The notes beneath the pieces are model-generated. The model searched no databases. It was not told the DNA's origin and saw only the letters and a program-made list of their open reading frames with translations. A program made the position numbers and the translations under genes. 61,229 bases of DNA from Raillietiella orientalis (taxonomy: Eukaryota). Below, in pieces: positions 1 to 61,229 of the stretch (its first letter is position 1; each line of letters begins with the position of its first letter). The stretch spans positions 1-61,229 of the forward strand of contig JAYWIR010000151.1 of assembly GCA_036172245.1 (NCBI GenBank), written 5' to 3'.

Positions 1-808
1 ATTCAATGGAGTTTCCGGAGCGTGACGCCTCTCAGGTATTCGCGAAGGTGTTCCTTCGCACCTGGGAGTCGCGTCCAGTTCTCCGGCAGACGCCAATCCC
101 TGGATGGCGGTCCCTTGTCACGAGGCCGCATCTCGAAAATTCATTGGGAATGGTCCGACAACGTCGACGCAACCCTCCCCCGTTTGCCGACCCGTGAACA
201 CAGGTCAGCGTCAAGGAAGACGTGGTCGATGCTGCGGACCATTCCCCTCTCACCCGCGAAAAAGTTGCGCGCACGCATGGTGGCGCAAAACTCGTTCATC
301 GCGTTCTCTTGTGTTTCTGGCTCACCTGTTAGCAGAAAAAGATTGAAATCTGCCGCTATCAGGTGAGCCTTTCGCACATTGGTATCCGCCAGCCAGTCGC
401 GCTTCAGGATTTCCAGCAGCCTGGTGCGGTCGCGGTAACCCTGCTTGCCGCTGGGGCCATACACGTTTGTGACGATTAGGTCGATCGAGTCGGACCAGCT
501 GAGAATCAGCTGACCGATCCGACCGTCGTCATCAAACCGCACGCCCTTTACGGCAGCGTCGATGGCCGGCTTCACGAAGAACGCGACCCCGCAGGTGTTG
601 CGGAGGCCGCATCGCCAATAGAACCGACCCCCCCTGATCGTCTCGATCTCCTGGGCGTCTGCCGCGGTGATCACGTGGATCTCCTGCAGCAGAGCCAGGT
701 CGAGCTCACGCAGGGTGTCGGCCGTATCTCGCCTGTTGCCGTCGTCGCGCCGCCCGTTGACGTTCCAACAGGCCGCGCGAATCCGACGGCGACTGGCGAG
801 CCCAGGTG
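1..808 (-). pseudogene. A1 ORF2 N-terminal AP endonuclease domain (partial)
   Basis: ORF 141-674 has NVYGP, ADFN, SIDH and SDH; an internal stop follows at 143-141. Confidence 0.88.
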
Positions 809-2685
809 TTAGTCCTGGGAAAACGGCGATGCGGCCCCCGCCACCTGCTGGGGCGGGACGCTAGGTGGAGGGGGAGGGGAGACAGATACTGAAGGCACCT
901 GTTCCTCCTCCTCCATCGGTGCCGGCGCGTCGGCCGGATCACCCGCAGGTGGAGTCGCGCCTACCTGTTCGCCCTCCTCCATGGGTTCGGGCTGCTCAGG
1001 TTTCCCTACTGCAGGGAGGACTTCACCCCCCTGCTCACCCTCCTCCATGGGAGTGGCCGACTCGACGGCTACCGGGCGTGGGTATTCCCCTTCCGGGATT
1101 CCCACGCTGTCGCTTCCTTCCGGCTTCTCCTTCTCGCTGTTGGAGGGGAGGCGCCTCCTGGGTTTCTGGGACTTGCGTCATGACTTCCTGGGGGGTGCCT
1201 CTGAGGAGGAGGATCCGCTTCCGGCCCCCAGGTCGCACTCACCTGCAGGGGCCTTCTTCGTCGGAGCCGACCTGCGTACGCCCTTGCGCGACGGGGTTTC
1301 GCGCTCGGCGAGCGTTGCTGCGAGCTCCTCCGCCGCTTTCTCGAAGGCCGCGTCTTCGCCAGTGGCGACCGTTGCCGCGGGCTGCTCCGGGACCTTATCC
1401 AGCGCGGCGTCATCGCTGACGGCAAACCTTGCCGCGGGCTCCTCCGCGATTTTATCGAGCGCGGCGTCCTGGCTGTCGGCGCGCGAGTCTCGCGTCTCAC
1501 CCTCTAAACGTAGAATGGGCTGGTTTACGCGAGTATTCATCGCGTCCGCATCAGCTGTTCCGCGAACATTGCCGCGGGCGGACACGGCAGGAACGGCTAA
1601 GCGTTCCAGTGCCACCGAGCATTCGCGGAGTTGTTTTTTTTTTGAAAGCGGCGCGACCTTTTTCTTGTTGCCGGCAGTTTTCTTCTCCGACTTTTCTTCT
1701 GGCATTAATTTCTTTTTTTTTTCTTTTCTGGCCTGAACCAGCTGCCAACCCCCCTCCATTTCCGCGTTTACGGGAGATCTTTCCTCCGACGTCTGTAAGG
1801 GAGGAAGGGGGGCTGGCATTTGGGAACGGCCATTTTCGCGAGCTGGTCTTTCTACCAGCTTTCCACGTTTTCCCTGCGCCTTTTTGGTAACAAGGGGCAC
1901 CGGGGTGGGGCGCTTGAGGCACACGCGCCAAACGTGACCCTTTTCGCCGCAAAAGTAACACACAATGTTCGGGCACCTTTTTCGTAGATGCCCTACTGCA
2001 TTGCAGTAGCCACAAAATTGGCGTTTCCCCACGTACCAGAGGTCCACCGCTTCTTGGCAGACCTCCAGGTTGTGGAGAAGCGCACCACCCTCTTTTACGG
2101 TGATACGCGCCGCAGCTTGACCTCTGAAAGGCTATTGTAGCCTTGGAAAATCGTGGACTTCGGCCACAACGCGTGCACTTCTGCGTGCTTTTGTAACTGT
2201 TCGCGAACCGCTGATCTAGTCATGCGACTGGAGATCCCAGTGAGATCGACCACCACCGAGCGGTCCATCGTTACCGGCAAGATCTTCCGACCATCAACGA
2301 TCAGCGGGTGGGTGATCAGGTGTCGGGCCAAGGTGATATCCTTGCATACCACCTCGACCCGCTGCCCGCCGCTGAGGACGCAGAGGCCGTCCAGAACTTT
2401 TTCGAAGATATTGGCGTTCTGCAGCGCCTTCGTAAAGGCGCGTGCAGTTCGCCCATCGAGAAGGTTGCCTACCTTGTAGACTAGCGAGGGCTTATACCCC
2501 ACTTTCTTGTAGGCTTCCATCTCGGCCATGGCTTTCACGCTAGGCGCGGCCACCATGGCGCTCCATGACCTCGGCGTAGCCTAGGACAATTCCGGGGCGG
2601 ATGCCCCTGATCCAGTAGGCTGTGGGGACGAACAAGCCTCCATCACGCCTACTTCCATCGCGGTGTCCTCTGCCAACGCTGCCAT
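809..2685 (-). pseudogene. A1 ORF1, gag-like nucleic-acid-binding protein (stop codons and frameshifts)
   Basis: ORF pieces 2095-2556, 1178-2047 (CGYCNAVGHLRKRC, CYFCGEKGHVWRVC) and 809-1105 are colinear with A3 ORF1 (16877-18628). Confidence 0.88.
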
Positions 2686-2787
2686 CGGACACCGACTATG
2701 TGCACGCACAAATCACTCAAGAAAAAAAACCACTCGCCTTGCCACGCAGGCGGAGCGCAGGAAAAGCACGTCCTCTCTCCACAGCGG

Positions 2788-5769
2788 GGATTCGGCGATG
2801 GGCTGAGGAACGACCGGGCATACCACCACGCCCGTCTTTACTCTAGGACTCCCGACGTTCGACGCCTGGCGGAGTATAAAGCTGTGGCTGAGCGACAGAC
2901 CTGGCAATCCGGGTTGCCAGCTTGCTAGACACCCAAGGCCAGGAATGCTCAGCTCCGGCGAAAATAAACCGCATCCTGCGGGACTATTACTCCTCCTTGT
3001 ACGCGCGTAGAACAACAAAGCGCGCCGTGGCGCAGCGCTTGCTTCCGCAATGCGCCCCCGCGCTACAGAAGGAGCAGACACATCAACTCGAGGAGCCCTT
3101 CTCGATGGCGGAAATCAGTTCCGCCATTGGAAAGCTCAGAAAGAGGAAAGCACCAGGGGAAGACGGTCTGCCCGCTGAGTTCTACCAAGGCTTTGTGGCG
3201 GAGCTGGCCTTCCTAGTGCATCGGCTTTGCATGCTGATCCGAGAACAAGGGGACGTCCCCAAATCGTTCCGGTCAGTTAGGGTACGTCTCCTGCCGAAAG
3301 CAGGAGACAATCGCAACGTAGGCAACTGGCGTCCCATCACAGTAGTGGATGCGGATGCGAAGTTGCTTGCCAAGCTTTCGGCTGAGCGACTGGGATGGGT
3401 GACGGAATCCGTGGTGAGTCCAGAGCAGACATCCGCTGTTCCCGGACGAAGCATGGAGGTCAACCTGTTCCTCGCCAGTACATGGTGGCATTTGCAACAA
3501 AGCGAAGACCAGGGAGGTCAAGAGAATCCTGGATTCTCCTCTGACCAGGGAGGGGACGCCCTTCATGGAAGAGCCCCGCCGGGTGCCCTTGCGGTCGCAG
3601 TCGATCTGCGTAAAGCGTTTTATTCCTTCGACCAGGAACTGCTTCTGGATCTCCAGGAACGCTTGGGATTCCCGGCCGTCTTCCGGGCTTACCTGCGCTC
3701 CTGCTGGCGCTTCGCTCTAATAAACATCTCCTTTAGCGGCCGGCACGTGTACGGCGTGCCGGTTCGGCGTGGCAGAAGGCAGGGTGACAGTCTGAGCCCC
3801 TTGCTCTTCAGCATCTACTTCGAGCTGGTGCTGAGGGCATACAGGGAGACTCTGCAACCCTGTCAAGCTCGTGTCCCGGCACGCCTGCCGTGTCGGCCTG
3901 CGCCGACGACCTTCTGCTCCTGCACCCCGGGTCCATTACGGGGTCGGCGCTCGAAGATTTCTTTGAGTTGCTGCGCCGCGGGACGGGCCTCGAGGTGAAC
4001 AGAGAGAAATCTTCCATCGTTCCAACATCACCACAACTTTTCAACCATACGGCGTGGGCCGGACGGCCGAACTGGATCCGCTTGAGTATCCTTACGGGCA
4101 GGTGCTTCAAGTACCTTGGCGTTCGGTTGGGGGATTTCTGCGTTGCAGAAGCCTGGTCCGACCGTCTCCAAAAGGTGGAGTTGGCGATCAACCCGTTCCG
4201 GAACGGCAAGTTTTACTTGCAGGAGCGGGCCGCGGTGTGGAAAGCGTTCGCGGCCCCCCTCCTTCGCCCCTTACTTTTTGTTTGCCCCGCCCCTCCCATC
4301 ATACAGAGTCGGACCAAAGCCCTCTTGAGGACTGCCCTTTGGGGCACAGCGAGGTCGCGAGTCCAATTGAAAGACTTGTGCGCTCAACGCAGGGATGGTC
4401 ACTTGGGCCTCCTTACGTTGGAGCGCATCCAACTACAGACAACACTTCGGAAGTTAGCCCTTGCGGCTAGCTTATGGATCATGCCATTGTGCGATTCGGC
4501 ACGGCTCCTCGCCAGAAGAGCGACCGGCTGCGAAGGATTGTCCTCGATCCTCGTGACCTACCAGCGCAGCCTCTCCAACTTTGAGTCCGATTTGCGCCAG
4601 ATGGTCGCCCTGATGAGGGAGAATACCTGGATCTCCTGCCTCCCCGCGAACTGCATTGCCTGGCTTCAGAGTCAGCTTCCGCGTGGGCTAAGATCAACGG
4701 CAGGAGCGGGGCGGAATACAACTTCCTACGACGAGGACCGTACGCTCGACAGCCGCTGCAGGAGATTATCAACACGCCCCGGAAGTTTCTGTTGGCTCCT
4801 TTCAGCCCCCTTGCCCCCGTTCTGTCCTCCCTAAAAAACATTAGGAGCAGCAACGAGCGGGCATCGTGGGAAGTGTCCTGCCTTGTCCGAGGCAAAAAAA
4901 AACCTTTAAAAACGTAGGCGACTTGGGAGCTCACGGACGTTGCCACCCCGAGCGTCCCTCCTCACGGACATGCGCGCTGGTGAGAGCTGTTTGCAATACC
5001 TCCGGAGGAGGTGAAGTGGCCCCCAGCGTGTTGGGATTGTTGCACACTTCCCTTGAAGTGGCAGGAGACGGCGTTGCTATTGCTGCACTGAGGACTGTTG
5101 AGCAGAGCACGCCTGTCTCACTGGACACTGGAGAATGTGAATGCCCTCTGTGTCGAGTGCGGAGGAAGAGAAACCTTCCCGCATCTCACCCTCGAGTGTG
5201 TCGCCCTGGATGGACTCTGGAGTCGAATCGCCCCAATCCTCCATCTTCCAGTAGGCGACCCTAAAGAAATTTACCGTCGCCTCTTTCTGCGTGACGTCCT
5301 GCGCCCCGCTGCGTCCCTTGCAGTCCTCTGCTGCGTGCGCGGCATTGTGCAAAAATGGCACGCCAGAAGAAGAGGCCGAAGATGCAGGGACGCCATCCAC
5401 TGAACGAGGATCTCTGTAGAGGCGGCGACAAGGTGGCGTCTACCTTTCACAATAAAAACCGGACTTGAGTGTATCCTAAACAGGATGCGGAGGACCGACC
5501 CAGGCGCCCAGTGATACCTTCCCTGCCCCCCCTCCTCTCCCCATATAACTGTTTCCCTCCCCGTTATCTCTCGTTTTGTTTGTGTTTGTTCAAGTTTTCC
5601 CTTTCCATGCGCCTCAGGAATGGACCTAACCGGTCTATGCACCGGCAACCGACACGTCGAGCAAGGTGGGTGAACCCAGTGTTTCCCCACAGAAAACATC
5701 TTTTTAAAGGCTCTATTATCTAATTTTTGTAAAAAATTAGAATAATAAATGCCCCGGCATATCCGGATG
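2788..5769 (+). mobile_element. Non-LTR retrotransposon family D copy D1, 3' half (decayed ORF2 RT and zinc finger, 3' UTR)
   Basis: KAPGEDGLP, WRPIT, RQGDSLSP, CADD, KYLG and CVECGGRETFPHLTLEC across frameshifted ORFs 2922-3998, 3890-4834 and 5098-5403; ends in AATAAA-TGCCCCGGCATATCCGGATG (5744-5769). Confidence 0.9.
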
Positions 5770-8700
5770 ACAAACTTCGGCTGCAGCTAAGCATTCCGGG
5801 CCAGCGTCATCGAGCAGACAAGCCGCTGCAGATTGTCAAACCTGGCGCTCGGCCCTGGCGTTGTATTCCGCCAGACGCCGGACGTCCGGGCATCGGGAGA
5901 AGGTACGCGCCTGCAGATAGGATCTGCTGTTCGCGACACCCTCCCCGAAGCCGCGAGGAAGCAGGTGCAAGGGGAACCGGCAGCAGAACTAGAGGACCGA
6001 TCTTTTCAGATCGTCCCAGTCCTGAAGTTCAGGGATGGCAAAGCCCCGGAAGTGTTGGCGAAGATGCTCTGCCGCCTCCGAATTGTTCAGCCTGTCGGTC
6101 GGCAACCTCCAGACATTCATCGGAGGCCCTTTGCCAGGCGGAAGTAGCTCGAACTCCAGTGTAGGATGATCGGAAATCGCGGACAGCAGGCGCCCTTTCC
6201 GACCTACTCGTGAGAGCAGGTGTTCATCGAGGAACGCATGCTCCGGCGATCTCTCCATCCCGGGCTCACCAGCAAGCAAGTTTTGCACGCGCACGCACGC
6301 CCATACCTCGCTCACCAGTTGCTTCTCCCTCAAGCGGCATCTCTCCTCTGTTAGCAGGTTGACGTTGAAGTCTCCTGCAAGGAGGTGCGCCACGTTAGGG
6401 ACGGAGTCAGCGAGCCAGCGGCTGCGCAGGCCACCCAGGAATGCAAGTCGCTGGGCGTATTGCCAGCCGCCGCTCGGCGCGTAGGTGTTCGTAACGACCA
6501 GGTCGATCGATTCGGACCACTTAAGGACAAAATGGCCCACACGACCTTCCTCGTCGAAACAAACGTTTCGCACCGCCTATGCCACCCTGCCTCGGACGAG
6601 GAACGCGACTCGGCACGTTTGCGCGGAGCCTTGCCGCCAGTGTAGCGTCCCGTCCGCGCGCTCTTCGATATTCGAAGCCTGCCGTTCGGAGATGCTATGT
6701 ATCTTCTGCAGCAGCACCAGATCGAACGCGCGCAAAGAGTTGGCTACCGTCCGCCTTTTGTCAGCATCACGTAGCCCGTTGACATTCCAACAGGTCACGC
6801 TGACGCGACCAGCGGACGCGAGTCCACTCATCACTGCTGCGCACATGACGGCGTGCTCCTCGCCCCGTCCGGCGAGAAGTAAGCTGGTAGGAGAGCGGAT
6901 TGGGAAGCGGAAGCGCTCCCGTTCGCCGCCACATCGCGCCCAGCTGAGTTCTGGGAGCCGAGGATCATCGCCTTGGTTTCCATGCAGGAGCCGGAACTGC
7001 CTCCAGCAGCAGGCTCGTGCATTCGCACTTTAGTCCGGCGCGCTACCAGCTGACCCCGGGATGCGCGCTCCATTTGTTTGCACTCGGACTCCACCTCGGA
7101 GTCCGAGTGCCTGGTGCGAGACTGGCATTTTGCCAGTCTCTTTTTGTTTCGGCAGGTGGAGGCTTGCCCTGCCCACGCGGGGGTCGTCGCAGTCGCCAAC
7201 GCAGCTTCCGGAGCTTTGGCTTTTGCAGCCGCCCTCTCGCGCGAAGCGACGGAGACAGAGAACGCCGCCGTAGTGCGTACCTGGGTACGCACCTTCTTTG
7301 GCGTGCTTCTCTCTTTCCTCCCACCCACCTTAAAGATGAGGAATATTGAAGGGTCAACCTTCTTCTTCCCCTTTGTGGGCGTCCTGGAGACGCTAGTCCA
7401 TCCCGCGTAGGGGACGCCCTCGTAAAAGGCCGACGCCTCCCTCAATTGTTTGGCAGGAGATTCCGGCTCACCTTTCGCGCTCGCGGCGGGAGACGGCTCC
7501 GTCCCCGTTACGCACGGCACCTGCTCCTTAGCCGATGCGGGCGGAACGGCGGGCATTGCCGTCATCCCGCGAGGCTCTATTGCAGCCTTCGTTGCTCGCG
7601 CCTTCGGCGTGGAAGACGTGATGTCCACCGCCGTAGGAGCAGACTGCCGTTCAGAGGCAGTTCCGAGGGTACCCGCACACCGTTTCCCGTGTGCTCCGCT
7701 GGACGCGCAAGCGGACACGGACGGTTCAGTAGCCTTGATTGAGTGCGTGCACACACTCTTAGGCCGCTTCGAATGGAGCGATTTGCACCCAGGGTGACGT
7801 GGCATCTTTCCCATCTGCGCGGCTGTCTGAAATGATGGCTTCCCTGAAGCAACCGCGCCCTTTTTCGCGAGACCGCCACTCCGCGATGCCCCGCCCTTTG
7901 CGCCCGATTTCTCCCGTGGCACAACGGGGGAACTTTTGGGCGCGGACGTTGTCAAATGTTGGCGGTTTTTTGCCTGCCGCTTTCTTTTCAGCTCGGCGCA
8001 CTCTTTGATGGAGTGACCGAGCTGTTTACAATAGCGGCAGTTGAGTGAAGAGCAGGTCCACAGACGGTGGCCCTCTGCACCGCAAATGCCGCAAGCCGGT
8101 CGCTGGCAAGGCAAATTTAAGGTTTACGATCGCATCGCCCACCTGCAAGTGCGGAGGCATTTGCCTCCTATCCGACATGGTGACACGCGGCATGGCAAGT
8201 TCGCTGTGGAGAGATGCAATCCTTTTGATCGGATTGTCTGCTCTCCACAGCGCGTGCACTGAGTCGAATGCACTAAGTGCAGCGACGAGCACGCGATCGG
8301 GCGTGTTCACCTGGACGGCGGACAATCGGACCCCGAACGACTAATCCATAACCGACGGGACGACTTCCTTCCCGCGGATATTTAGCGAAGTTCGGAGAAG
8401 ACGCTGGACTATAGATGCCTCTTTGCAGTGCACCTCCCTGTGTCCGAGCGCGTTTACCGGCATGACGGCCAGGGGGTCGTCCTGTCGGACCCCGACGCGC
8501 AAAAGCTCATCCCATACATTTTCTCCGACCCCGTCGGAGATCGCAGCACTCACCGGATAGCAGAGCGCAGGCTTGTAGCCATGGGCTGCATATGCCTGCA
8601 GCTCTGCTTCGTCGGACGGTGCTCCGTTGGCTGCCGCCGCCTTGACGACGGCGGCGAAGCATCTCGACGGTGGCGAGACACAAGAATCAGAGGCGGACCG

Positions 8701-8854
8701 GACATCTGCAGTAGAGTCTCCACTGCCAGTAGCAGCCTCCACATCCATCTTTTGCTGCAGGGGCTCCGTGGACATCCTAGTGGACGCAATCGGGCACACC
8801 ACACACAAGAAGACGGAAAGGAATCACGCTCGAGGAGCAACACAGAACACGTCC
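5770..8854 (-). mobile_element. Non-LTR retrotransposon family E copy E1, 5' half (ORF1 8775-6831, endonuclease 6831-5770; both disrupted)
   Basis: GGACGTG at 8854-8848; knuckles CGICGAEGHRLWTC and CRYCKQLGHSIKEC; TGATG stop-start at 6833-6829; WNVNG, NTYAP, GDFN and SDH. Confidence 0.9.
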
Positions 8855-9050
8855 GTGCACCGTTGTCGTCGAGCGTATTCCCGACCGCTGCGCAAAAGAA
8901 CTCGCCGCTACCGACGACAACCCCGCTGTTGACTCGGTCAACAGCGAGGGGATCGAGCCGGCGGCGGCGTCCGTCATCGACAGCACCATCGATGAGTTAG
9001 CCTTCGCGCGAGCCGCGGAGGAGCTGGCAGCCTCGTTGCAGCCAGAACCC
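8855..9050 (+). mobile_element. Diverged family C ORF1 fragment (C4)
   Basis: Aligns by eye to about 36863-37070 (CTVVVER...ARAAEELAASLQPEPS). Confidence 0.8.
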
Positions 9051-9920
9051 TCCGCGGTTAGTAGGAGGACGTGTTTTTCCTTCACTCCCCAAAGAGTAGT
9101 AGGAAAGCGCTTTTTCTTCTGTGTGGTGTTTTGTGTACATCGTCGGTGTCCAATGGCCACGACGCCAGAGGACACCGCGATGGAGGTGGGAGTGGGGGAG
9201 GCTAGTTCGCCCCCACAGCCTACTGGAGCAGGGGCAGCCGCCCCGGAATCATCCCCGGCCACGCCGAGGACATGGAGCGCCATGGTGGCCGCGCCCAGCG
9301 CAGAAGCCATGGCGGAGATGGCCGCATACAAGGCCTCCGGGTACAAGCCATCGCTTGTCTACCAGGTAGGCAACTTGTTCGACGGCCGGACAGCGCGCGC
9401 CTTCAGCAAAGCGTTGAAGGACGCGAATGTTAATGAGAAGGATCTGGACGGCCTCTCCGTCCTCAGCGGCGGGCAGCGGGTCGAGGTGGTCTGCAAAGAT
9501 GTCACCTTGGCTCACCGCCTAATCCATGCGCCGCTGAACGTAGCCGGCCGCAAGATCCTGCCAGTATCAATGGACCGCTCCGTGGTGGTCCACATGACTG
9601 GCATCACCAGCCGCATGACGCGGTCAGCGGTTGGTGAGGAATTAAGAAAGTACGCTGAGGTGCACGCACTGTAGCCGAAACCCTACATTTTCGACGGCTT
9701 CGATAGCCTTTTTGGTGTGCAGGCTGCAGCGCGGGTCACCGTAAGGGAGAATTGTGGGCTTCCTCACGAACTACGGGTGGCGAAAGAAAACGTCGACCTG
9801 TGGTATGTAGGGAAGCCCCGGTATTGCGGGCATTGTGATACCGTGGGACACCTAGGTAAAAGGTGTCCCAATATACAATGCCATTTGTGCGGGGAGGGGG
9901 CCACGTTCGGCGCGTGCGGG

Positions 9921-12900: not shown

Positions 12901-13131
12901 CCGAGCGGGCTTTCACTAAGCGCAGGGATTGAAGCCATCGGTTGCATACGCGCGATAGTTTCCGTCCGCCAGGCGTTGGTAATCAACGGACAGCACCAAG
13001 AGGTAATCAGCAAACCATCCTTCTACATGGGAGCATCTGCTAGATGGCCTCATTTGACAGAGGAGACAAAAAGGAATCTCGCCGCAATACACCGCCGGTT
13101 TGCACACCCTCAGCAGCGGCCAACCCGGTGA
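9921..13131 (+). pseudogene. B1 ORF2: truncated endonuclease, frameshift near 10470, then uninterrupted RT and zinc finger
   Basis: ORF 10216-13131 has WRPITL, DLHKAFD, RQGDSLSP, YADD, KYLG, GLG and CVLCGSTEWIPHLLLDC. Confidence 0.9.
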
Positions 13132-13443
13132 TCATTGCCCTACCCTCCATAAACTAATTTTGTATTTTGTTTTTACACCCGCGTCCCCATAGGCTCCGGA
13201 ACATTTGAGGTGCTCATCCTTTAAATCCCCGTGAGTACGGAGCCTAACCAAAAACCCTTCACCCTTCCCTCCAGTTTTTGATTTTTGTTTGTTTCCCCTC
13301 ATTCCCCCACGCTGCGAGCGGTTTGTTTACCAGGCCTGCGTGCCGGTAATTTTTCTATGTTCTCTGTAGTTCTGTTGGTTGAGGACATTGTGCCTGACCA
13401 GTTTATTATTATTAATAAACGCTCCGGCGTGACCGGTTGATAA
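9921..13443 (+). mobile_element. Family B copy B1 (5'-deleted) nested in A2
   Basis: Colinear with B2 21481-25003; terminal AATAAA and hairpin at 13414-13440. Confidence 0.9.
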
Positions 13444-16400: not shown

Positions 16401-16790
16401 CCAATAACGAAGGAGTGGGTCCACACGCGAGGGATGTCGTCCCATACGCCCAACGCTTCATGCGGAGAGCTGCCGGATGGCCCCAACTGGGGAATATACG
16501 GACGGACCTCAAGGGCTTCCTTCAACGGATGGGCCCTCCTCACAGCGTTCAGTGATCCCTTCCCTGCCCTCCAACTTCTTTTTGTCTGTTTATGTTTTTT
16601 ATTTTTCTTTTTGTTTTATCCCCATCCCCCTTCGCTGCTGAGGAACGCTACGCTGGGCTGCGTCCCGGCGTCCCGGCAGGTCCAGTGCATATGGCCGTGA
16701 GCGGGGCCTTGTACCGCGGATGTAGAGTTTTTTTTTTTAAAAATAAACGCCCCGGGCGTACCCGGGTGTAAACCTCCGCGGCCAGTTGGA

Positions 16791-16797
16791 GGACGTG
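16791..16797 (+). promoter_or_regulatory. Conserved 5' GGACGTG motif (DPE-like); also at 9067, 19103, 35690 (+) and 2773, 8854, 50724, 60048 (-)
   Basis: Present within about 16 nt of eight 5' junctions from five families whose UTRs are otherwise dissimilar; function is inferred. Confidence 0.6.
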
Positions 16798-45685: not shown

Positions 45686-45698
45686 GTCTTCCCCTTTT

Positions 45699-48614: not shown

Positions 48615-51600
48615 TTCAAGAAGAACACAGTGATGTTAATGCCCGCCAGGAAGATGCCGATCGCTACGGGAGTGACCGGATGAATCTGTTAGAGATTGGC
48701 ACGACGCTTTGGAGGAGTGACCTTCCGCCGTGCACCCAGGATGACCTCCTGATGTTTTATCACGGAGGAATCCAGAGTGGGTCCCGATTGCAGCACTTCG
48801 CAGGAAGACGGGAAGACCGAGACTGCGCAGCATGTGGAGACGACGACACGAGACTTCACGTCTTGACGTGTCCCACACTGCTGCATGACTGACTGATCCT
48901 GAAATGGATCATAGGACTTACCAACAAGTCCGTTATGGAGATCCTCGCCGGGATGTTTCATGGGGATGGTAATGTTTCCTGTTACAATCCCATGGTGCGG
49001 AGGGCCATAGCCCTCTTCGTCATCGCCATACTTGTGCGGTGGTGGAAACTGAGGAAAGCCAGGAGAGCCGCAGCACCGATGAAGATCCTACAAGGGCTCT
49101 TGAAGAGGGAAATGGGCATCAGAACTGCGGGAAGATCCACGCCTGGACGTACCGATTCATCCTGAAGAGGATCCAGGACGACGCCCGGGACCATCCAGCT
49201 GGAATTTCTTCCTGAAAAGCAGAACTCTAGTGCAACCCAAGGACCCCCAAGTGCAAAAGGTTTGTTTTGAGTGAATGAGAGTGCGAATGTAAATATTGTA
49301 TTTTTATAGAAAAATAAACTTACTTACCCCTTTTGGGACTTGGGGAAACTTAGTGATTGCGAGAGGCGCTGCCTCTTCCAGATCGGAGGGCTCTTGCGTT
49401 GCTTTTGCTACCGTTGGGGGCAGTGCTGTAGCGGTTGTCCTCGCCCTAGCGGTTTCTTTCTTGGCCGCAGTCGGCGCTACGTCCGCGAGCGAGGACTGCG
49501 GGTTTGCCGGCTGTTTCTTCGCAGCACTGGGCGCCTCTGGCATTTTGGCCGCGGTAGGTTGAGACGGCGCGGTATTCTTTGCCCGCGGGCGCGTTTTTCC
49601 CGTTTCGGGCGAACGACCGAATTCTGCGCCGCTCGTCGAGGCCTTGGTACGAGGTTTCGCGGTCGTGATGCCGACTGTTGTAGGCTTTTTGACCTTCGGC
49701 ACAATGTCTCCTGCATTCAACAATTGGCTGCGAGGTCTCCTAGAAAGGTCACATTCTTCGTGAGCTTCCTTCGCGTCGATAGCCGGAGGCTTTGCCGCGA
49801 CGTGTTTTTTTGTTTTTCATGACTTCTTTGTGGGGGCGAGAAACAGTTTTCTGCACGTGCGTGGTCGCGGTTTTCGCAACGCTTTTCGGAGCTTTGATGT
49901 TTCTTTCTCTCGATTCGCGGAGATTATTCCTTAATGCGGAACGCGATTCGTTCCTGCGCTTTTCGTTTTTTAAAAAGAGCTCCGGGCACGTTCCTTCAGT
50001 GTGTCCGTGCTCGTAGCAGTAACGGCAAGCGGCCGAGAAACACTTCGTATTGCGGTGACCCTCCTGCCCGCATTCCGCGCATACACGCGTTTGCCCGGCA
50101 AACCACAGGCGGACGGTCATTCCATCCACCTGCAGTCGCGTGGGCATTGCACGGCGATCCGTCATCGTCACTCGCACTTGCGCGAGCCCGCTGTGGTGGT
50201 CTTCGAACCCTTCAGCAGGGTTTGGCAGCCTCCAAAGCGCTTGGACGGTAGCGTATTTTTCAAGGGCCGCCACGACTTGGAGGTCCGAAAGGCCCTTACA
50301 CTCCCCACTGAGCCGGACAACGAACGACTGGTCCGTTGTGACAGGGAGTATTTCCTGCCCACGAATGAGCAGCGGCGTGTGCAGAAAACGCTGCGTAAGG
50401 ACAGCGTCCTTACTGGACACCTCCCAGAAGCCGCACCCAATCATGGGCATGATGGACACCAGTTGGACTTTTTGAACTCCAATCCGTTAGAGTTCCTGGA
50501 CAAACTCGCGCCCAATTCACTCAGGCATGAGGACACTTACGTTATACCTGAGTGCAGGCGAGGACAGAGGCTCCTTGCTAGCAGCCGAAGCAGCCATCTC
50601 AGTAGCAGGTGGCGTTCCCTTCTTGCGGCTGATTTTCTTCTTTGCTCCCATTGCAGCACAGAAGCACAGAAGAACAAAAAATCACAAGAGTCAGCCTACC
50701 GCGTAGCGACGCAAGAGCACGTCCGTACGCGACCGTCGCTGATGCGTGAGACGGGAGATGTTCCCGCTTCTTTCCGCTCAGCAAAGGTGCGTCTCCTGCC
50801 GAAAGGCGGTGATTTGCGCGTCCTCAGCAACTGGCGTCCGATCACCTTCGTGAATTCGGACGTCCAGTTGTTCTCCAACCTATGTGTCGCGCGCCTGGGG
50901 AGAATCGCGGAGTTCTTGGTAGGTCCGGAGCAGACGTATGCTGTTCCGGGGCGGTCCATGGACGCGAATCTCTTCTTCGCGCGAACATGGTTCGACCTGC
51001 AACAGCGCGTGGCGCAGCAGAGTCAGGCAGCCGAAATCGCCGCTGCCAAAGGTAAGCGGCGGTGTTCAAGGCACGATGGAACGCCGGAAGCCTTAGCGGT
51101 CGCCGTCGATCTCTGCAAAGCGTTCGAAAGCGTAAACCAGGACCTCCTTCTGAAGCCTCTGGGACGCCTAGGCCGCCCGACGCACCTCATCGCCTACTTG
51201 CGCTCTTGCTGACGCCACGCGTTATGCTGTATCTCTTTCAGCGGACGCCACGTGTATGGCGTTCCCATATGGCGGGGTATCAGGCAGGGAGACACCTTAA
51301 GCCCCCTGCTCTTCAGCATCTTCTTTGAGTTGGTGCTGAGTGCGGACAGGCTGACGCTGGCCAACCTGCCGAGCTCCTGCCCGGGAACACCGGCCGTGAC
51401 CGCCTATGCTGACGACCTTCTGCTACTGCCCATGTCCATCCCGGCGTCCAGGCTCGAAAACTTCTTCGAGCTTATTCGTCGCGGAGCGGGCCAGAGCGTC
51501 AACAGGACCAAATCAACCGTTGTACCGGTTGGCTCTACGTGGGAGAGGCAGTCCGACTGGATCCACCTGGGGATCCCCACAAGCAGGTGCTTGAAGTACC

Positions 51601-52349
51601 TCGGCGTTCCCTTGGGCGCCTTCTGACCAGCAGAAGCGTGGTCGGACTGCCTTCACAAGGCCGAGACCGCTCTAGGCCCGTTCCATGGCACCAGGTTTCT
51701 CCTGTCCGTACCCGCCTTCGTGTGGAACATTTTCATTGCCCTTCTCCTCCGTCTCCTCTTTATTGTTTGCTTCCCTCCCTACTTGGCTAAGCGCCAGAAG
51801 CAACGCCTGCTGCGTAACGCCCTGTGGGGACCGGCGAGGTCCAGGATACGCCTGAAGGACTTGGCGGCACCTCGGTGGGATGCAGGATTGGGCATCCTGA
51901 CGCTGGAGTGGATCGGACTGCTAGTGCAGTTCCGCATGCTGGCACTTTGCGCCCAGCTCTGGACTACTCCCTGGTGTGCTCCAGCGCGGCTGCTGCTTCG
52001 AAGCTGCACGGGTGGCGACGGATTGCGTTCGTTGCATCTGCGCACGGAGCGCGTCCAGAGAGGATTCGGCTTCCCTTTGTAGCAGCTCGCCACGCTTCTG
52101 GGAAAGCATGAGTGGATCTCCTGCCGGCCGACGAACTTCAACGCCTGGAGGCAGGAAGCCTTATCGTCCTGGGCAGCGCAACAGGATGTGTCCCGTTTGG
52201 AACTCCGTTGCGCGAAACTTTCCCCATACTGTCCAGTGGGGAAGCTGCTGGATGACCAGGACCAGTGGACACGCCTAGCCGCTACGCCACTCGCCGAAGC
52301 ACAGTGTGCACTGATGGTGCGAGATGATAGTGACCTGCCGTCGAGGTTG

Positions 52350-52489
52350 GTGCCCAGACCACTGTTGGACTCAGTCGATACGTCGGCGAGAACCTGGTGC
52401 TGGTGTTCACTGACATGGAGAAGGCCTTCGACTCCATCGACCACGGCATGGTGCTGAAGGTTCTGGAGAAGCTTGGGCTTCTCCGGAAC
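52350..52489 (+). repeat. Captured 140-bp copy of the family L RT (matches 47257-47394)
   Basis: Direct alignment with about 8 substitutions and a 2-nt insertion. Confidence 0.9.
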
Positions 52490-52510
52490 CTAACCTAACC
52501 TAACCTAACC
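52487..52510 (-). repeat. Interstitial (TTAGG)n telomere-type repeat
   Basis: AACC(TAACC)4 on the plus strand, perfect. Confidence 0.85.
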
Positions 52511-53320
52511 GTTGCCGAAACGCGACTGATGTGCGGCTGGAGGACGTGCGAGGTAGCAGACGCTGCTACGATATGCCTTCGTGCCAAGGGACTTCTCTGG
52601 TGGAGTGAGCTCCTCGGGGTGCCCACCGATGAACTTGTGGTCCCTTTTGCGTGTTTCGACGAGACTCTCTTTCCCCTTCGGTGGAAGCAGAACGCTTTTC
52701 TGCTGGTGCATTAGGGTTTGTACTGCAACCAGCGGGAGCACCTGATTTCCGGGGTAGTTGCGTCCCCGAACTGTGCCAACTGCGAAGCGGTGGAATCGCT
52801 TTCGTATTTGCTGTTTGAGTGCGGTACCCTCCGGGAGCTGTGGCAGCGGCTGTCTTCAGCGCTCCTGCACTCTGGACACACCGCACTGGATTGGATGCGC
52901 CGCTTCTACACGCGTGGCGGACTTTCTCTTGAAGCGGTCGTCGCAATCATCTGCTGCGTCCGCGCCATTTTCAAGGCCCGCACGTATTGCAGATGCGAGC
53001 AGTCCCAACATCGGTCTCCGACACCGCAGCCTGCAACCTGCAAATGGCTGCCGGGTGCCCACATCTTTGAGCAGAAGTGAAGACGAAGATCGGCGGCATT
53101 CACCGCCGGTTCTGAGAATAGGAACGGTTAGACTGTATACCCCTGTCCCCGCACTTCCACCCAATTTATTTATTTATTGTGCCCCCCTCTACCGTTTCTA
53201 ACTCTCACTGTGCCCGCACTGCGTTCCGGGAAATCTACTCCCCATTTTCTGTTCCCCTTGCCTGGGAACACAGTTCCCAGTTGATATTATAATAAAACTC
53301 CCGGCGCAATCGGGTAATAA

Positions 53321-54473
53321 ACGACAACGCTTCATTCTTTTATCTGCTCGCTTGCCTGCTGTTTTTTCTGGCGGTATGCAAGCTTTTTCTCTAATCTCCT
53401 CTCCTTCTTTGATTTTTTCGCCGTTGCCAATTGCCACCCATTCTCCTGCCCGGCTCCCTCAACTTTTTCGGCGTTGGTCGCCGGGGTCTCGGATGCGGCC
53501 TGGAACTTGAGCGCGGGTAGCACAGCCTTCGCGGCAGCTTTCGCCGCCAGCCTTTTCTGCAGAAGCCGGGCGCGTTTTCTAAGGTTTCTCTTGAAAACCA
53601 CCCGCACTGCTGCTTTTGGGCACACCTCCCTCGTGTGACCCATTGTTCCGCATACTTGGCACTGCACGTTGGGGCACCTTTTTTTCAGGAGGCCCGACGG
53701 ATTGTAGAAGCCACAGTATTTCGGCTTCCCCACATACCAGAGGTCGACGGTTTCGCCTTCGACCATCAATTTGTGGGGAAGAGTGCAGCCCTCCCGAATG
53801 GTCACGCGCGCAGCCGTGAGGCCATGTTGCAGTCCCGTGTAGTCCTCGAAAGGACTAACTTTCGTCCATTGCGCGTGGACCGTTCGGTATTCCTCCAACG
53901 CGGCGCGATCCTGTTAGTTGCGCATCCGCGCGGTAACACCCAACAGGTGGACCACTATGCTGCGTTCCGCCGTAATAGGGAGGAGCCTGCGCATCCCCAT
54001 CACACCTGGGGTTTCAAGCGGTCGTTGCGCCAGCTCAGCATGTTTGCAGATGACCTCAACGTACTGATCCCCGCTGCGGATGGTCATAGCGCTGAGCTCC
54101 TCCTCTTTCACATCGAGAGCGCGCATGCCCTTCGAGAAGGCGCGCGCGCTCTCTAAAGAATAAAGGTTGCCTATCTTGTAGAACAATGAAGGGTTGCACA
54201 CCTCCTCTACATAGGCCGACAATTCCGATGCTGCTGAAGGCGATGGCTCCTACACAATGGCGCTTCACGCCCGCGCTGCATTGGCACTGATTCTGTAGGG
54301 GCGGATGCCCCCACCTCCATCGCCTCTGGGGGCGGCGTTGCCGCTGCCGCCTGGCCATCCCTGGTGGTCGCGTCAGGCATCACTGCCCAATCGACCACCG
54401 AACCACACGACGCTTGCACTGGGGGAGACTTCCTAGCACGAGGAGCCCCGAGAAAACTCTACCACCCTGGAGC
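53321..54473 (-). mobile_element. Family C copy C3, 5' UTR and ORF1 part, more diverged, in tandem with C2
   Basis: ORFs 53914-54222 and 53332-53898 are homologous to C1 ORF1; 5' end GCTCCAGGGTGG. Confidence 0.9.
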
Positions 54474-54488
54474 ACGCAAGGCGTTCGA

Positions 54489-57400
54489 TTTTCACCCGGA
54501 TTTCGCCGGTGCGTTTATTATAAAACAAACATTTACAAAGACGTGCAGTGGCTGGACGATTGCTCCAGCCACGCACGAAGAAACACAGAGCCTGTCGGGT
54601 CATCTGCTCGCAGACCGGTACGGTCCACCACGGCAGCAGGATGAAAGGGAAAAACAAAAAACAAAACAAAAAAAGAAAAGAAAAGTTGGGAGGGTAAGGG
54701 AAAAGATCACAGTTGCTGGTAAGACCATTGCATCCTTTGCAGGATGCCGGCAAGCTCCTTCTGTATTCCTCGATCCTAGTAGAGCCATAGGGACGCCCTC
54801 CTCAGGAACTGGGAGGCTGGCTGGAAGGCACCCTGGTCGCGTTGACCTCCCGTTGCCTTCCTCCAATTGGTGACGATCCCGCGTAGGCAGCACAAAGCTG
54901 CTAACGAGGCCGCTGGCCGAAGTGCGTCAGCAACGGAGAGGGCTTTCAGTGCGTCCCTGGGGTTGCCGCAGGGGATTCCGTTGGCTGCGGCAAAGCGAAA
55001 CCCAAGGGGGCGAAGGGCAACTCAATCCACTAGCAGGTGGGGAAGGGACTCCCGTTCCCCACACCTGACGCAGTTGGGGTCCACCGCTCCCCAGGTCCAG
55101 TGGTGACGGCGGGCGTTGCAGTGGAGTACCCAGTGCTGCAACAGGAGAGCCGAATCCTGCCATTTTAAGGGCACGGTGGAAGTGTTCATGAGCACCGGGG
55201 GCCACTTGAGATGTTCAATGGGAACATCGGGCAGCGCGCCCCAGCGCAGAAGTCCATTGGGATGCGTACTCGGGGACGCAGCGTCTGTTAACTTACCTGT
55301 CTTCCACTCTCCTAACTCCTTCTCATTTCCGGAGAACTTAACTGAAACCTCCCACTTCGCCGCAACATCGCTGTCCAGATCTTCCAGCAATGAGGGTAGC
55401 GCAGCAGCGAGGGAGGTTCTTCCTGCCCACGCTGTCTTCTTTGGATCCTACAGGATATCGCGGAGCGTGCAACTTCTGTAACCACCAAACAGGAACCTTC
55501 GTTCCTGTTGAGAGCGTTGCATGACGAACTGTCCCCACGTACGAACGGTTTCCTGTTACCAGTCACTACCGTTAAATGGGCGACAGGTGAGCAATCCTGG
55601 GTTTTTCCGATACAGCGCAGCCACCCTCCGTAGCTGGAGTCCGCATCGGTTGACGCAGCGACGGAGTGCAAGAAGCGACGTCAGTCCCGTCTTGCCGGTG
55701 GCTTGCTGGAGAAGGAGACGTGCGGGGACGCACCAACAGGTGCACCACCACTCTGGAACGAGTGCCGACAATCGGAACTGGAGCTTAAGCTTCAGCCGCT
55801 CCAGCGTCAGCAAGCCCAGACCACCGTCCCGACGAGGAGTGCACAAGTCCTTTAAGCGGACTCGGGTCCTCCTGTTGCCGCAAAGGGCGATAAGGAGGAG
55901 GTCCTTTGTCTGCTTTTTAATTCTTCCTGTGGGTGGGCAAACAAAAAGCAGGGAACGGAGGAGAGGAGCCGCAAACGTGTTCCAAACCACGCCCCGTTCA
56001 GTCAGGAAAAACCTGCCGCCTCGGAACGGGCCGATCGCCGTCTCTACTTTTTGAAGGCAGCCGGACCACGCTTCCGCAGGGGAGTAGTCCCCCAACGGCA
56101 CACCAAGGTACTTGAAGTACCTCACCGTGGGGATCCCCAAACGGACCCAGTCCTGCTGCCCTGCCCACGCCGCACCAACTGGCATCACGGACGACTTCGC
56201 CCTGTTCACCGTAAGTCCGGTTCCCCGATGCAGCAGGTCGAAGAACTCCTCGACCGCCGCAGCCGGGGTGGACATAGGGAGCAGCAGCAGAAGGTCGTCC
56301 GCGTATGCTGAAACGGCCGGCGGACCGGCACAGTCGTGCGGCAGGTGCGCCAGAGTTCCCCTGTACGCTCTCAGTACCAACTCAAAGTAGGTACTGAAGA
56401 GCAAGGGGCTCAGGCTGTCTCCCTGCCGGATCCCACGCCGCACCGGCACGCCGTGCACGGTCTGCCCGCTGAAAGTAACATTGATAAGCGCGTCGCGCCA
56501 GCAGGAGCGCAGATAGGCCATTAATGAGGCCGGGAAGCCCAAGCGTTCCAGAAGCTCCAGAAGGAGATTCTGGTCGACGCATTCCAATGCTTTTCGCAAG
56601 TCGATTGCGACCGCAAGGGCTCCCTCCCTCCACCCGACCATCCGACCCCTTGCCAGAGCACGCACCGGAATTCCGGCTGCTCAATAAGCCCCTTCCTTGT
56701 TGGAGCTCTAACCATGTGGAAGCGTGGAACAGGTTCGCCTCCATGCTCCGCCCGGGAACAGCATAAGTCTGTTCCGGGCTGATGAAGATGTTGGCAACCC
56801 GTCCCAGACGCTCTGCCCACATCTTGGCTATCAACTTGGCGTCCGCATTCACTATTGTGATGGGACGCCAGTTGTTCATGCTCCTTAGGTCTCCTCCCTT
56901 CGGGAGGAGCCGCACCTTTGCTGAACGAAACGAGGTGGGAACGTCACCTGTTTCACGGATCAGCAAGGTGAGTTGCTGTACCAGGGGGGTAAGCTCAGCC
57001 GCGAAAGTTTGGTAAAACTCCGCGGGCAGGCCGTCCTCCCCTGGAGCCTTCCGCCTCTTGAGCTTTCCGATGGCCGAGAGGATCTCGTCCATCGTGAAAG
57101 GCTCGTCGAGGGTCTTGCTCTGCTCCTCCCCGATCGCTGGAGTGCCTTCCGGAAGCAGGAGTCGTGAGACGTTCCTCTCCGGAGGTGCCCTGGCATACAG
57201 GGAGGAGTAGTAACTCCGCAGCAGGCCGCGCATTTGGGCAGGTGCCGAGTGCTCCTGGCCCTGATCGTCCAGTAAGCTGGCCGATCCGGACTGCCAGGCT
57301 TGCCTCAAGGCTCCCGCTTTGTATTCCGCCAGCCTGCGGATGTCGGGGGTCCTGGCGTAACGACAGGCCTGCAGGTAGGCTCGTTCGTTACGGACCCCGG

Positions 57401-60058
57401 TCCCAAAACCCGTAGGTAGGCGGTGCAGAGGAAACTGGTCGCAGAACTCCTGGACCGACCGCTTGAAGCGGTCCCAATCCTGGAGTGTCCGCAGCCTGAA
57501 GCTCCGTATGAACTTGCGGAGATGTTCCGCCGCGTCCGGGAGCTTCAGCCAGTCCCCTGGGAGACGCCACGCTGACGAGGGGGGACCCCTGTCGCGCGGA
57601 TGGATCTCGAGGACTAGCGGGCGATGGTCGGACAGCTCGCACGGTAACCTGCCGCGGCTGCCCACGCGAGGGCACAGGTGCTCGTCAAGAAACACGTGGT
57701 CAATGCTGTCTTCCATCCCCGGTGCACTGGCCAACAGATTACAGGTGTGCACCGCCATGCACACCTCGTTGACCAGGTCACGCTCGGGATTCTGCTCATC
57801 TGGTTTCAGGCGAACGTTGAAATCGCCTGCAACCAGATGGGCATTCCGCACGCCTGCTTCGGTCAGCCAGTCTCGCCGGAGGATAAGGAAAAACTCTTTC
57901 CTCGCCCTCCTGTTCATCAGGTCCTTGCCGCTCGGTGCGTACACGTTCGTGACGATCAGATCGATCGAGTCCGACCACCTAAGAGTCAGCTGGCCGACAC
58001 GACCGTGATCGTCGAACCGCACGCCCCGAGTCGCGGCCTCGACGGCTGGCCGAAGCAGGTAGGCGACACCGCAACTTTTCGCTCTCTCACACCTGTACCA
58101 TAGCCGCCCTCCGGAGATCCGTTCGATCTCTTGCGCTTGTTCTGCAGAGATCACGTGGATCTCCTGCAGCAGCGCAAGGTCGTAGGACTCCAGAAGGGCG
58201 GCTATGTCTCGTCTCCTGCCGGCGTCTGTCATGCCGTTCAGGTTCCAAACGGCGATGCGCAGACGACGGCAGGAGGAGATTCCCGGCATTACTGCTGGGA
58301 AGATTAAGGTGTGAGGGAGGCCTCCTCTTGCGAGGTGGTCAAGATGTCCATGGGGGTTTCGGCCTTCTCAGGCACCTGAGGCACCTGTTCGGGCTCCACC
58401 TCCTCCATCCCCTCCGTGTCCGTGCGTGGGAGTCTCTAGGGCGACGGGTCCCGAGAGTTTCCCACGCTCATGGCACCCTCGCTTGCGGAAGCCATCTCTT
58501 CCCCTTCGTCGGGGGAGACGAGCTTCCTTGGCTTTGTGGACTTACGTCCAGCCTTCTTGCGCGGTGCCGTAGAAACGGAGGCTGCGGTTCCGGCCTCCAC
58601 CTCGGGGTCGGAAGTGGGGGACTCCTGAGGGGAGGCCGGACGCCCTACGGCCTTCTTGCCAGCCTTGGAGGATTCTGGCTGCAAAGAGGCTGCCAGCTCC
58701 TCCGCGGCTCGCGCGAAGGCTACGTCATCGATGGTGGTGTCGATAACGGACGCCGCCGCCGGTTCGCTCCCCTCGCTGTTGTCTGTGTCAACAGAGGGGA
58801 GGTCGTCGGTAGCGGCGAGTTCGTTCCGGCAGCGTTCGGCAACATCGAGAACGCGTTCGACAACGACGCTGCACTCTTTAATTATGGCGCTACCCTGCTC
58901 TTTCTTCTTCTATTGGTAAGCGATTTTCTTTTCCATCCTCCTCTCCTTCTTTGATTTTTTAGCTGTTGCCACTTGCCACTCAGTCTCCTGGCCGGCTCCC
59001 TCAACTTTTTCGGCGTTGGTCGCCGGGGTCTCGGGTGCGGCCTGGGTCTTGGGCGCGGGTGGCACAGCCTTCGCGGCAGCTTTCGCCTCCAGTCTTTTCT
59101 GCAGAAGCCATGCGCGTTTTTTAAGGTTTCTCTTGTAAACCATTCGCACTGCTGCTTTTGGGCACACCTCCCTCGTGTGACCCATTGTGCCGCATACTTG
59201 GCACTGCACATTGGGACACCTTTTTTTGAGGTGGCCCGACGTATTGCAGAAGCCACAGTATTTCGGCTTCCCCACATACCAGATTTCGACGGTTTCGCCT
59301 TCGACCACCAGTTTGTGGGGAAGAGTGCAGCCCTCCCGAACGGTCATGCGCGCAGCAGTGAGGCCGTGTTGCAGCCCCGTGTAGTCTCCGAGAGGACTAA
59401 CTTTCGTCCACTGAGCGTGGACCGTTCCAAACTGTTCCAAAGCGGCGCGAACCTGGTCTTTGCGCATTCGCGCGGTCACGCCTAACAGGTGGACCACCAT
59501 GCTGCGGTCCGCCGTAGTGAGTTGAACCCTGCGCGTCCCCATCACAACGGGGGTTTTAAGCAGTCGTTGGGCCAGCTCTGCATGTTTGCAGATGACCTCA
59601 ACGTACTGACCCCCGCTGCGGATGGTCATAGCGCTGAGCTCCTCCTCTTTCACATCGAGAGCGCGCATGCCCTTCGAGAAGGCGCACGCGCTCTCTAAAG
59701 AATATAAATTGCCTACCTTGTAGAACAATGAGGGGTTGTACCCCTCCTCTACAGAGGCCGACAATTCCGCCGCGGCTGCAGGCGATGGCGCCGACAGAAC
59801 GGCGCTCCACGCCCGCGCTGCAGAGGGGACCGATTCTGTGGATGCGGATGCCCTCACCTCCATCGCCTATGGGGGCGACGTTTCCGCCGCCCCCTGGCTC
59901 TCCATCGCCTCTGGGGGCGGCGTTGCCGCTGCCCTCTGGCCATCCCTGGTGGTCGCGTCAGGCATAGCTGCCTGATCGACCACCGAATCACACGACGCTT
60001 GCACTGAGGGAGACTTCCTGGCACGAGGAGCACCGAGAAAACACGTCCACCCTAGAGC
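54489..60058 (-). mobile_element. Family C copy C2, full length (ORF1 59965-58304, ORF2 58289-54707; both disrupted)
   Basis: GGACGTG at 60048-60042; ORFs 58910-59863, 56382-58289 and 55556-56665 (YADD); 3' hairpin at 54519-54493; flanks 54474-54488 and 60059-60073. Confidence 0.95.
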
Positions 60059-61217
60059 GCACAAGGCGTTCGACTGTGAAAACCAGGAACTCCTCTTGGG
60101 GCTCCTGAAGCGTCTTGGGCTTTCGAATCATCTTCTCCTGTACTTGCGCTCCTGGTAGCGCCACGCGATGATCAACTTGCATTTCAGTGGCTCCCGTGTG
60201 TACGGAGTGGCCGTGCGCAGAGGCATCAGGCAGGGCGACAGCTTAAGCCCGTTGCTCTTCAGCATCTACTTTTAGTTGGTGCTAAGAGCGTACAGGCAGA
60301 CGCTGGCCGTTCTGCCCAGCGCCTCTTCGTGCACTCCGTCCGCGGCAGCATACGCCGACCACCTTCTGCTTCTGTTGACCATGTCTAATCCGCCGAACTC
60401 GGTCCAAGACTTCTTCGAGCTGATCCGTCGTGGAGCGGGCATGAGCGTTAACAGGGCGAAGTGGTCCGTCGTGCCCATGGGTGCGTCGTGGAAGGGACAG
60501 GTCGACTGGATCCGCCTGGGAATCCCCACGCTCAGGTACTTCAAGTACCTTGACGTACCGTTAAGCGACTTCTGCTCGTCTGAATCGTGGTCGGCCTGTC
60601 TTCAAAAGGCAGAGATGGCTCTAGGCCCGTTCCTGGAAGGCAAGTTTGTCTTGTTGGAAAAAGAGTGCATATGGAACACTTTTCTTTTACCCCTCCTCCG
60701 CCCCTTATTTTTTGTTTGCCCGCCTCCCTATTTGGTTAAACTCCGGGCGAAGCGTCTCCTACGTAAGGTCTTGTGGGGCGCTGCCCGATCCAGGGTTCGC
60801 CTCAAAGATTTGGTGGCGCCATGCCAGCACGCAGGCCTGGGCATCCTGACTATTCAGAAGATTGAACTGCAAGTGCAGTTCCGGCTTCTATTCCTACGTG
60901 GGAAATTGTGGTCAAGTCACTGGTGTGCTCCGGCTCGCCATATTCTCCAGCGATGTGTCGGCAGTGCAGGATTGCTTTCGTTGCTGCCGCGCAACCTTCG
61001 CCGGAGAACTGGATTTGGCTATCCACTGAGGCACTTGTCCTCGTTGCTGTTAGCCCATTCCTGGATTTCCTGCCGCCCCTCCAATTGGAATGCTTGGCAG
61101 CGGGAAGCTTCGGAGCACTGGACGTCCACTTTGGATGTGCGCCCACAGCAACTGCGACCCTTACAGGGTATCTTACGCAAACCGCTAGGAGTGATCCTAA
61201 GGGACTGGTCGCTTTGG
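60059..61217 (+). mobile_element. Family F copy F2, RT C-terminal fragment (host of C2)
   Basis: Near-identical reverse complement of 34521-35679; begins HKAFDCENQELL. Confidence 0.92.
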
Positions 61218-61229
61218 ACAGGAAGCATC

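Follow-up and report, generated by a model that had tools for sequence, protein, structure and literature searches.

Element families in the window

The DNA analysed here is a 61,229-nt stretch of Raillietiella orientalis contig JAYWIR010000151.1 (hereafter the window), in which retrotransposons lie inside one another and whose insertion history is the subject of this report. The window is 59% G+C, and 100% of it could be assigned to retrotransposons of the non-LTR type (lacking long terminal repeats), leaving no non-element DNA. Tblastn with the open reading frames (ORFs) of one element placed ORF1, apurinic-type endonuclease (APE), reverse transcriptase (RT), and C-terminal pieces on both strands over its full length, and an RT tree together with an identity matrix resolved these into eight families. 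Seven are siblings (A, B, C, D, E, F, and X) with 47-73% RT identity among themselves, and the eighth (G) is distant, at 27-34% identity to the siblings. The letters A to F are those of the initial annotation of this DNA, to which X and G were added. In ORF2 of both C and G, an N-terminal endonuclease domain (Pfam PF03372, Exo_endo_phos; E 1e-9 to 5e-15), which was also detected in D and B, is followed by an RT domain (PF00078, RVT_1; E 5e-18 to 2e-31), an order that fits an APE-type non-LTR retrotransposon, i.e. an L1-like long interspersed nuclear element (LINE). Matches to zf-RVT (PF13966) scored 19.7-25.7 bits, below the cut-off of 27.5, and CCHC knuckles (PF00098) scored 20.2-21.2 bits, borderline to the cut-off of 20.8. 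The best named protein matches are mammalian L1 at 22-26% identity, and among the best 150 listed of 1.84 billion protein representatives only P0001 (71%; ~70% identical to A and C) and P0095 (65%, a 132-amino acid fragment) exceed 37% identity. Judged by these best 150 listed matches, the lineage seems almost absent from public protein data. A metagenome scan with the 3' motif described below returned 64 loci, none of which had tblastn similarity to the ORFs, indicating chance matches, while protein-guided scans of genome contigs from viruses and prokaryotes returned 4 and 29 pattern-matching stretches, respectively, none encoding a relative.

The siblings are united by both termini. Their 3' terminus reads AATAAA-N3-4-CCGG-loop-CCGG-(G/A/T)T without poly(A), and this motif occurs 10 times in the window versus 1.25 expected by chance. 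AATAAA and CCGG-loop-CCGG are invariant in all 10 aligned sibling-family 3' ends, none of which has the poly(A) or A-rich tail expected of an L1-like LINE; the 3' end of G is of a different type. We treat the 3' hairpin as a sequence motif rather than a proven structure because its stem is without covariation, all four predicted pairs being invariant or one-sided. The shared 5' terminal motif is GGACGTG(T/C)TTTTC, and this conserved 5' terminus is reached by 10 copies. Only X is truncated, and the second copy of B in the window (B') lost its 5' part by deletion. By eye, the 5' motif GGACGTGTTTTT (e.g. 16791-16803 and 19103-19115) resembles the 3' motif AATAAACGCCCC (e.g. 28317-28330) when the latter is reverse-complemented (GGGGCGTTTATT), and the transcript ends may be partly complementary.

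Junctions and order of the nest

The initial annotation had named six junctions at which one family interrupts a coding motif of another, and all six positions are real, each with a target-site duplication (TSD) or an overlap. On the forward strand, an A element (16778-28343, in pieces 16778-19096 and 25004-28343) contains a full-length B (19097-25003) at GDFN, with the TSD ATTTCAATC identical at 9/9 positions (19088-19096, 25004-25012). To its right, the reverse strand carries the middle part of D (28344-29730), from GFG back to the inter-ORF region, and the D 5' part (32273-33261), consisting of ORF1 and a degenerate 5' terminus; the D 3' part, from GFG to the 3' end, lies at 2788-5775 (+). 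The A insertion in D at GFG has a 14-nt TSD with 3 differences (2788-2801, 28344-28357). D lies in E at AEV, where the two sides overlap by ~8 nt with ~3 differences, and ~17 extra nt that belong to neither element (33262-33278) are present at the D 5' junction inside E. The E element comprises a 5' part up to AEV (5776-8854, -), a middle part from AEV to SLMR (33279-33562, +), and a 3' part from SLMR to the 3' end (50736-53320, +). F1 is inserted in E at SLMR with a 12-nt TSD containing a single synonymous difference (33551-33562, 50736-50747), and occupies 33563-50735 (-) in three pieces (33563-35679, 41219-43628, and 49351-50735). It is in turn host to C1, which is full length (35680-41218, +), antisense to F1 at HKAFD, and flanked by a 15-nt TSD with 2 differences, both synonymous (35665-35679, 41219-41233). 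E is inserted in C3 at ECSVVV with a 15-nt TSD and 3 differences (8855-8869, 53321-53335). The C3 5' part, from its 5' terminus to ECSVVV (53321-54473, -), is 85% identical to C1 and C2; C2 is full length (54489-60058, -) and is followed by the left flank of a second F copy, F2 (60059-61229, +), which begins at HKAFD, runs off the window, and has 2 mismatches in 1158 bp to the F1 flank. The 5' untranslated regions of C1 and C2 each contain a 42-bp unit repeated twice (87% matches; 35798-35880 and 59858-59940).

Beyond these six, we found junctions of four other types: two insertions of A in C3 (at C1-coordinate 37070), X in D, a U4-G composite in F1, and an F-like end in A2, an A copy that belongs to a diverged subfamily. 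Two of these four contradict a rule of one family-one site. The composite (43629-49350, +) consists of a full-length U4 small nuclear RNA (snRNA; 43629-43766, RF00015, 78.2 bits, model positions 1-138 of 138) joined directly to the 5' end of G, and its 13-nt TSD is identical at 11/13 positions (43616-43628, 49351-49363). It reads as a putative snRNA-LINE chimera that arose when the RT switched templates, or else as a LINE headed by U4. U6-L1 is a known chimera of the former kind, and, as in such chimeras, the full-length U4 is fused to the G 5' end with one TSD around the pair, a single copy of which was seen. A2 occupies 7-2787 (-), from its 5' terminus (GGACGTG at 2761-2773) to about amino acid 296 of ORF2, is empty at GDFN (342-356), and differs from A with a ratio of non-synonymous to synonymous divergence (dN/dS) of 0.20 for ORF1 and 0.30 for the ORF2 5' part. 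Its homology to A and A' (a second A copy) stops at 6/7, where the last 6 nt of an antisense F-like 3' end interrupt it (1-6, -). X (29731-32272, -) lies in sense inside D and consists of a 3' end and ORF2 from about amino acid 495 (29731-32144), to which a foreign ORF1 fragment is joined (32147-32272, -; about amino acids 75-127, ~65% like D's own ORF1). X is thus an internally deleted or composite copy, and one contig from a public read run, X1, extends beyond the X break at the ORF1-fragment/ORF2 joint. This run covers 23% of sampled window words and yielded 597 aligned contigs, 49 of them ≥99% alike and all short. No junction was bridged by ≥31 nt in these contigs, and the only interpretable joint among those listed connects A-coordinate 25346 via TTG to an F-type 3' hairpin at 33566 (depth 4.5, 27-nt side). 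Taken with positions 1-6, this joint places an F-type 3' end within A2. A candidate insertion of A in D at 18085/18086 was rejected, as that stretch aligns colinearly with the inter-ORF region of C and lacks the 5' motif. A separate oddity concerns the C-terminal region of E ORF2, in which a 140-bp patch (52350-52489, +) matches the G RT motif region (EKAFD; 47257-47394, +) at 93% identity, even though the E and G proteins are only ~31% identical overall; the homology of E to B ends exactly at the start of the patch, and template switching or conversion are candidates for its origin.

Overall, TSDs of 8-15 nt accompany B, C1, F1, U4-G, the A copy inside D (A*), D, and E, which fits target-primed reverse transcription and supports the insertion of these elements into each other by this route. 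The nesting order F2 > C3 > E > F1 > C1 described for the right side of the window also holds. To the left of 9053 lie the blocks A2 (-), D (+), E (-), and a C fragment of 199 bp (8855-9053, +) that corresponds to C1 coordinates 36864-37070 of C3, between the ECSVVV site and a second site occupied by A. These blocks supply exactly the junction sides absent on the right, i.e. A 3' end/D (-), D 5' end/E (+), and E 3' end/C3 (-). In addition, the TSD copies at ECSVVV, one in the 199-bp fragment and one in the C3 5' part, share the derived variant CGTTGTCGT, whereas C1 and C2 have CGTCGTTGT, and therefore both copies come from one C copy. The caveat in the initial annotation that the two sides might be complementary halves split by an inversion was therefore correct, and its suggestion that the flanks derive from different host copies does not fit the ECSVVV pair. 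An A copy in C3 at C1-coordinate 37070 could have recombined with the inverted A copy in D, which would invert the intervening DNA to give the observed order and split three junction pairs across the window. With this inversion undone, the nest would read F2 > {C2, C3 > {A array (A', A > B), E > {D > {A*, X}, F1 > {C1, U4+G}}}}. As part of an overall explanation that we judge somewhat probable, the block order would reduce to a single proper nest, built by 13 insertions, and one inversion between inverted A copies. In that case A entered D, D entered E, and E entered C once each, and the two sides observed for each insertion are complementary half-junctions.

Duplicated blocks and reuse of insertion sites

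Self-comparison of the window revealed a direct repeat (9921-16768 versus 21481-28343) and an inverted repeat (34521-41230 versus 54477-61217), neither of which is uniform. The direct repeat pairs the A element that contains B with a hybrid unit at 9054-16768 (+), composed of an A' 5' part that extends to 9916, then a deletion joint followed by B' (9921-13443), and an A' 3' part (13444-16768). The joint at 9916/9921 connects about A' coordinate 872 to about B coordinate 2385, corresponding to a deletion of 3.8 kb by comparison with the second unit. To compare copies, we used a spectrum-corrected test of synonymous and non-synonymous change in preference to codon-position counts, as GC-rich third positions could mutate faster. 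The A 5' parts of the two units are 97.0% identical with a dN/dS of 0.71 (p = 0.3), and B and B' are 96.05% identical with a dN/dS of 0.73 (p = 0.07). The 3' parts of A and A' are 85.9% identical with a dN/dS of ~0.44 (p = 6e-11; of the codons with a single difference, 122 are synonymous and 146 non-synonymous, the synonymous fraction under neutrality being 0.27), and the change point in identity falls at 13760 (support 13478-13785). Divergence of the 3' part under purifying selection indicates that A' and A arose by separate retrotransposition from diverged active lineages. The segment comprising the A 5' part and B appears to have been copied at the DNA level, in which case B-in-A is one event.

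The inverted repeat is similarly heterogeneous. Across the F/C junction, 34521-36558 and 61217-59180 differ at only 3 of 2037 bp (99.85% identity), while C1 and C2 beyond 36558 are 5.7% different, rising to ~9% near the 3' end. The near-identical tract probably indicates a very recent gene conversion between inverted copies ~20 kb apart. Replacement of the C1 left flank by this tract would also explain why the two TSD copies of C1 differ at none but synonymous sites. The dN/dS is ~0.40 for C1 versus C3 (p = 3e-5) and 0.66 for C1 versus C2 (p = 0.004). It had been noted that most paired TSD copies differ, some only synonymously, and this is accurate at HKAFD and SLMR; the further deduction that the flanks originate from different host copies is less satisfactory, as age and the conversion tract explain these differences better.

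Two tandem arrangements bear directly upon the question of site specificity. After the 3' end of C2 come TCGAACGCCTTGCGT, which duplicates the F target over 15 nt (54474-54488, -), and then the 5' terminus of C3, while the 3' end of A' is followed by TAAACCTCC (16769-16777, +), a copy of the C3 target GAACCCTCC (9045-9053), and then by the 5' terminus of A. Such independent tandem copies around a target copy are the product expected of a site-specific element that re-enters a site regenerated by its own TSD. The anatomy of the nest, its TSDs, and the independence of the tandem copies are all evident at the level of sequence, by which independent reuse of one exact site is apparent in just two families, with C returning to HKAFD of F and A/A' to one site of C3. 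For C, there are three junction sets at HKAFD in two hosts (3/3 in this window). A has 2/3 of its junctions at one C3 site and the other in D, and F has one junction in E, with an F-like one in A2. All of these counts, that for C included, are small numbers from one window, and B, D, E, and F contribute one independent event each. For these remaining families, specificity or non-specificity alike is inferred. A motif shared between the D and C3 targets of A (GAAMCC) was considered and discarded as not significant (P = 0.39), and we detected no similarity between SLMR and the A2 site of the F-like end (P = 0.94).

Origin of the nest and its relation to known systems

The explanation that we favor, and consider somewhat better than even, is that a single deep nest of eight L1-like LINE families was built by target-primed reverse transcription and later rearranged, with at least two of the families being site-specific. 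On this account, C would nick the HKAFD site of F and the A/A' subfamily one site of C, and each of their insertions would regenerate its target in the TSD and permit tandem reinsertion. We infer that the endonuclease is the source of this specificity. Homologous recombination would later have reshaped the nest in three ways, apparently through inversion and conversion, producing the inversion, the hybrid A unit with its DNA-level copy of B, and the F/C conversion tract. Several observations weigh against this explanation. The inversion is deduced from topology; the specificity counts come from one window, with n = 2-3 per 'specific' family; A is also found in D, at a target without significant similarity to its C3 target; and the independence of C1 and C2 is weakly supported, with their F flanks homogenized. 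Furthermore, the 15-mer target of C (CACAAGGCGTTCGAC) is identical and empty in A, B, and B', which implies either that recognition extends beyond the TSD or that timing or chance limits C to F.

The initial annotation had gone further and proposed that each family has evolved specificity for one fixed coding site in a sibling, so that the group forms a closed, self-perpetuating cycle (C->F->E->C, plus B->A->D->E). We consider this unlikely. It is in keeping with the host/guest graph, which does contain the cycle C->F->E->C, with the reuse of exact sites by C (3 junction sets) and A (2), with the exclusively synonymous TSD differences at HKAFD and SLMR, and with the location of all 13 of the 13 inferred insertion events in other group members. 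The last of these is uninformative, however, because the window contains only such elements and landing in a sibling is therefore unavoidable. Undoing the inversion leaves one event each for E->C, F->E, D->E, and A->D, and B->A' is a DNA-level copy, such that four of the six pairs rest upon one event and the duplicated B/A junction lies within a neutrally diverging block; these junctions do not demonstrate family-specific fixed positions. A also has two unrelated targets, an F-like end lies at a second target unrelated to SLMR, and the potential C targets in A, B, and B' are empty. Independent recurrence at a single site of a single sibling is found only for C, at HKAFD of F. A does recur at one site, albeit in C3 rather than D, and also sits in D, whereas B, D, E, and F are represented by single events, and the cycle is demonstrated as a graph but not as a network of mutual specificity. 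The nest itself is real and its site specificity partial, with a closed network of evolved mutual specificity being possible.

An opposite explanation would dispense with sequence specificity entirely, with the window serving as an insertion sink (centromere/heterochromatin) in which repeated junctions arise by segmental duplication, unequal crossing-over, and gene conversion. The large duplicated blocks 9921-16768/21481-28343 and 34521-41230/54477-61217 (inverted), the clear conversion tracts, and the neutral divergence of B/B' and of the A and A' 5' parts are all of the kind that such processes would leave, and single-family nested LINE clusters (Zepp) are known from the accounts cited below. 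Nevertheless, A'/A and C3/C1-C2 have diverged largely under purifying selection (dN/dS 0.44 and 0.40), as separate retrotransposition products would, the tandem copies share a nick position with a target copy between them, and both duplication blocks end exactly at an element 3' end plus TSD, all of which make a purely non-specific sink quite improbable. Near-identical inverted tracts (99.85% over 2 kb) are also of the sort that mislead assemblers, and run X1, with 23% of sampled words, has contigs too short to bridge the junctions, so the nest order could in principle be an artifact of collapsed or mis-joined repeats. We give this very little credence, since every junction has the expected TSD and a single inversion is enough to turn the whole order into a legal nest, an outcome that random mis-joins would not give.

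Several features of the nest preferred here have counterparts in other systems. In the portions of PMC4494074 cited here, sequence-specific LINEs of the Tx1 clade are described as targeting transposons (Xenopus Tx1 in the DNA transposon Tx1D, and Tx1-Mar in Mariner-N4_AMi) and, in the case of Tx1-8_Crp and Tx1-4_AMi, LTR retrotransposons; a family is regarded there as target-specific when >20% of its flanks are of one sequence type, and RT template switching onto snRNAs is also discussed. Like Tx1 as described there, the present elements are APE-type and L1-like, and C and A/A' insert with TSDs at one exact sequence in another mobile element. Unlike Tx1, they target coding motifs in sibling LINEs from their own lineage, with host/guest relations in both directions, and the 3' end is a conserved stem-loop-like motif. 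Zepp and ZeppL of green algae, according to the cited parts of PMC3446292 and PMC8226300, form nested single-family LINE clusters through insertion into existing copies and similarly consist of GC-rich L1-type LINEs in pure clusters of nested copies. Those clusters comprise one family with mostly 5'-truncated 3' ends, in contrast to the seven siblings plus G, the 10 copies with a conserved 5' terminus, and the reused exact sites in the window. The Drosophila telomeric elements HeT-A, TART, and TAHRE likewise represent several LINE families in one niche with head-to-tail arrays, but as characterized in the cited parts of PMC6581046 and PMC13534243 they attach to chromosome ends rather than at internal coding sites of each other. 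Among the papers listed by the literature searches, we found neither reciprocal LINE-to-LINE targeting of coding sites nor a multi-family nest with such reuse.

LINEs that home to other mobile elements and single-family LINE clusters that nest within themselves are both already known. If the specificity seen here were to hold genome-wide, competing retrotransposons would create their own safe harbor, several natural APE endonucleases with distinct ~15-nt targets would exist, and there would be a mechanism for element-only chromosome domains. A more speculative idea, to which we assign a low probability, is that these LINEs form a community in which each endonuclease reads a conserved coding motif of another member, with the site reuse by C and A/A' as its first two arcs. 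In a community of mutual recognition of this kind, each insertion would disable a competitor while adding fresh targets, resulting in self-propagating, element-only islands that are possibly centromere-like.

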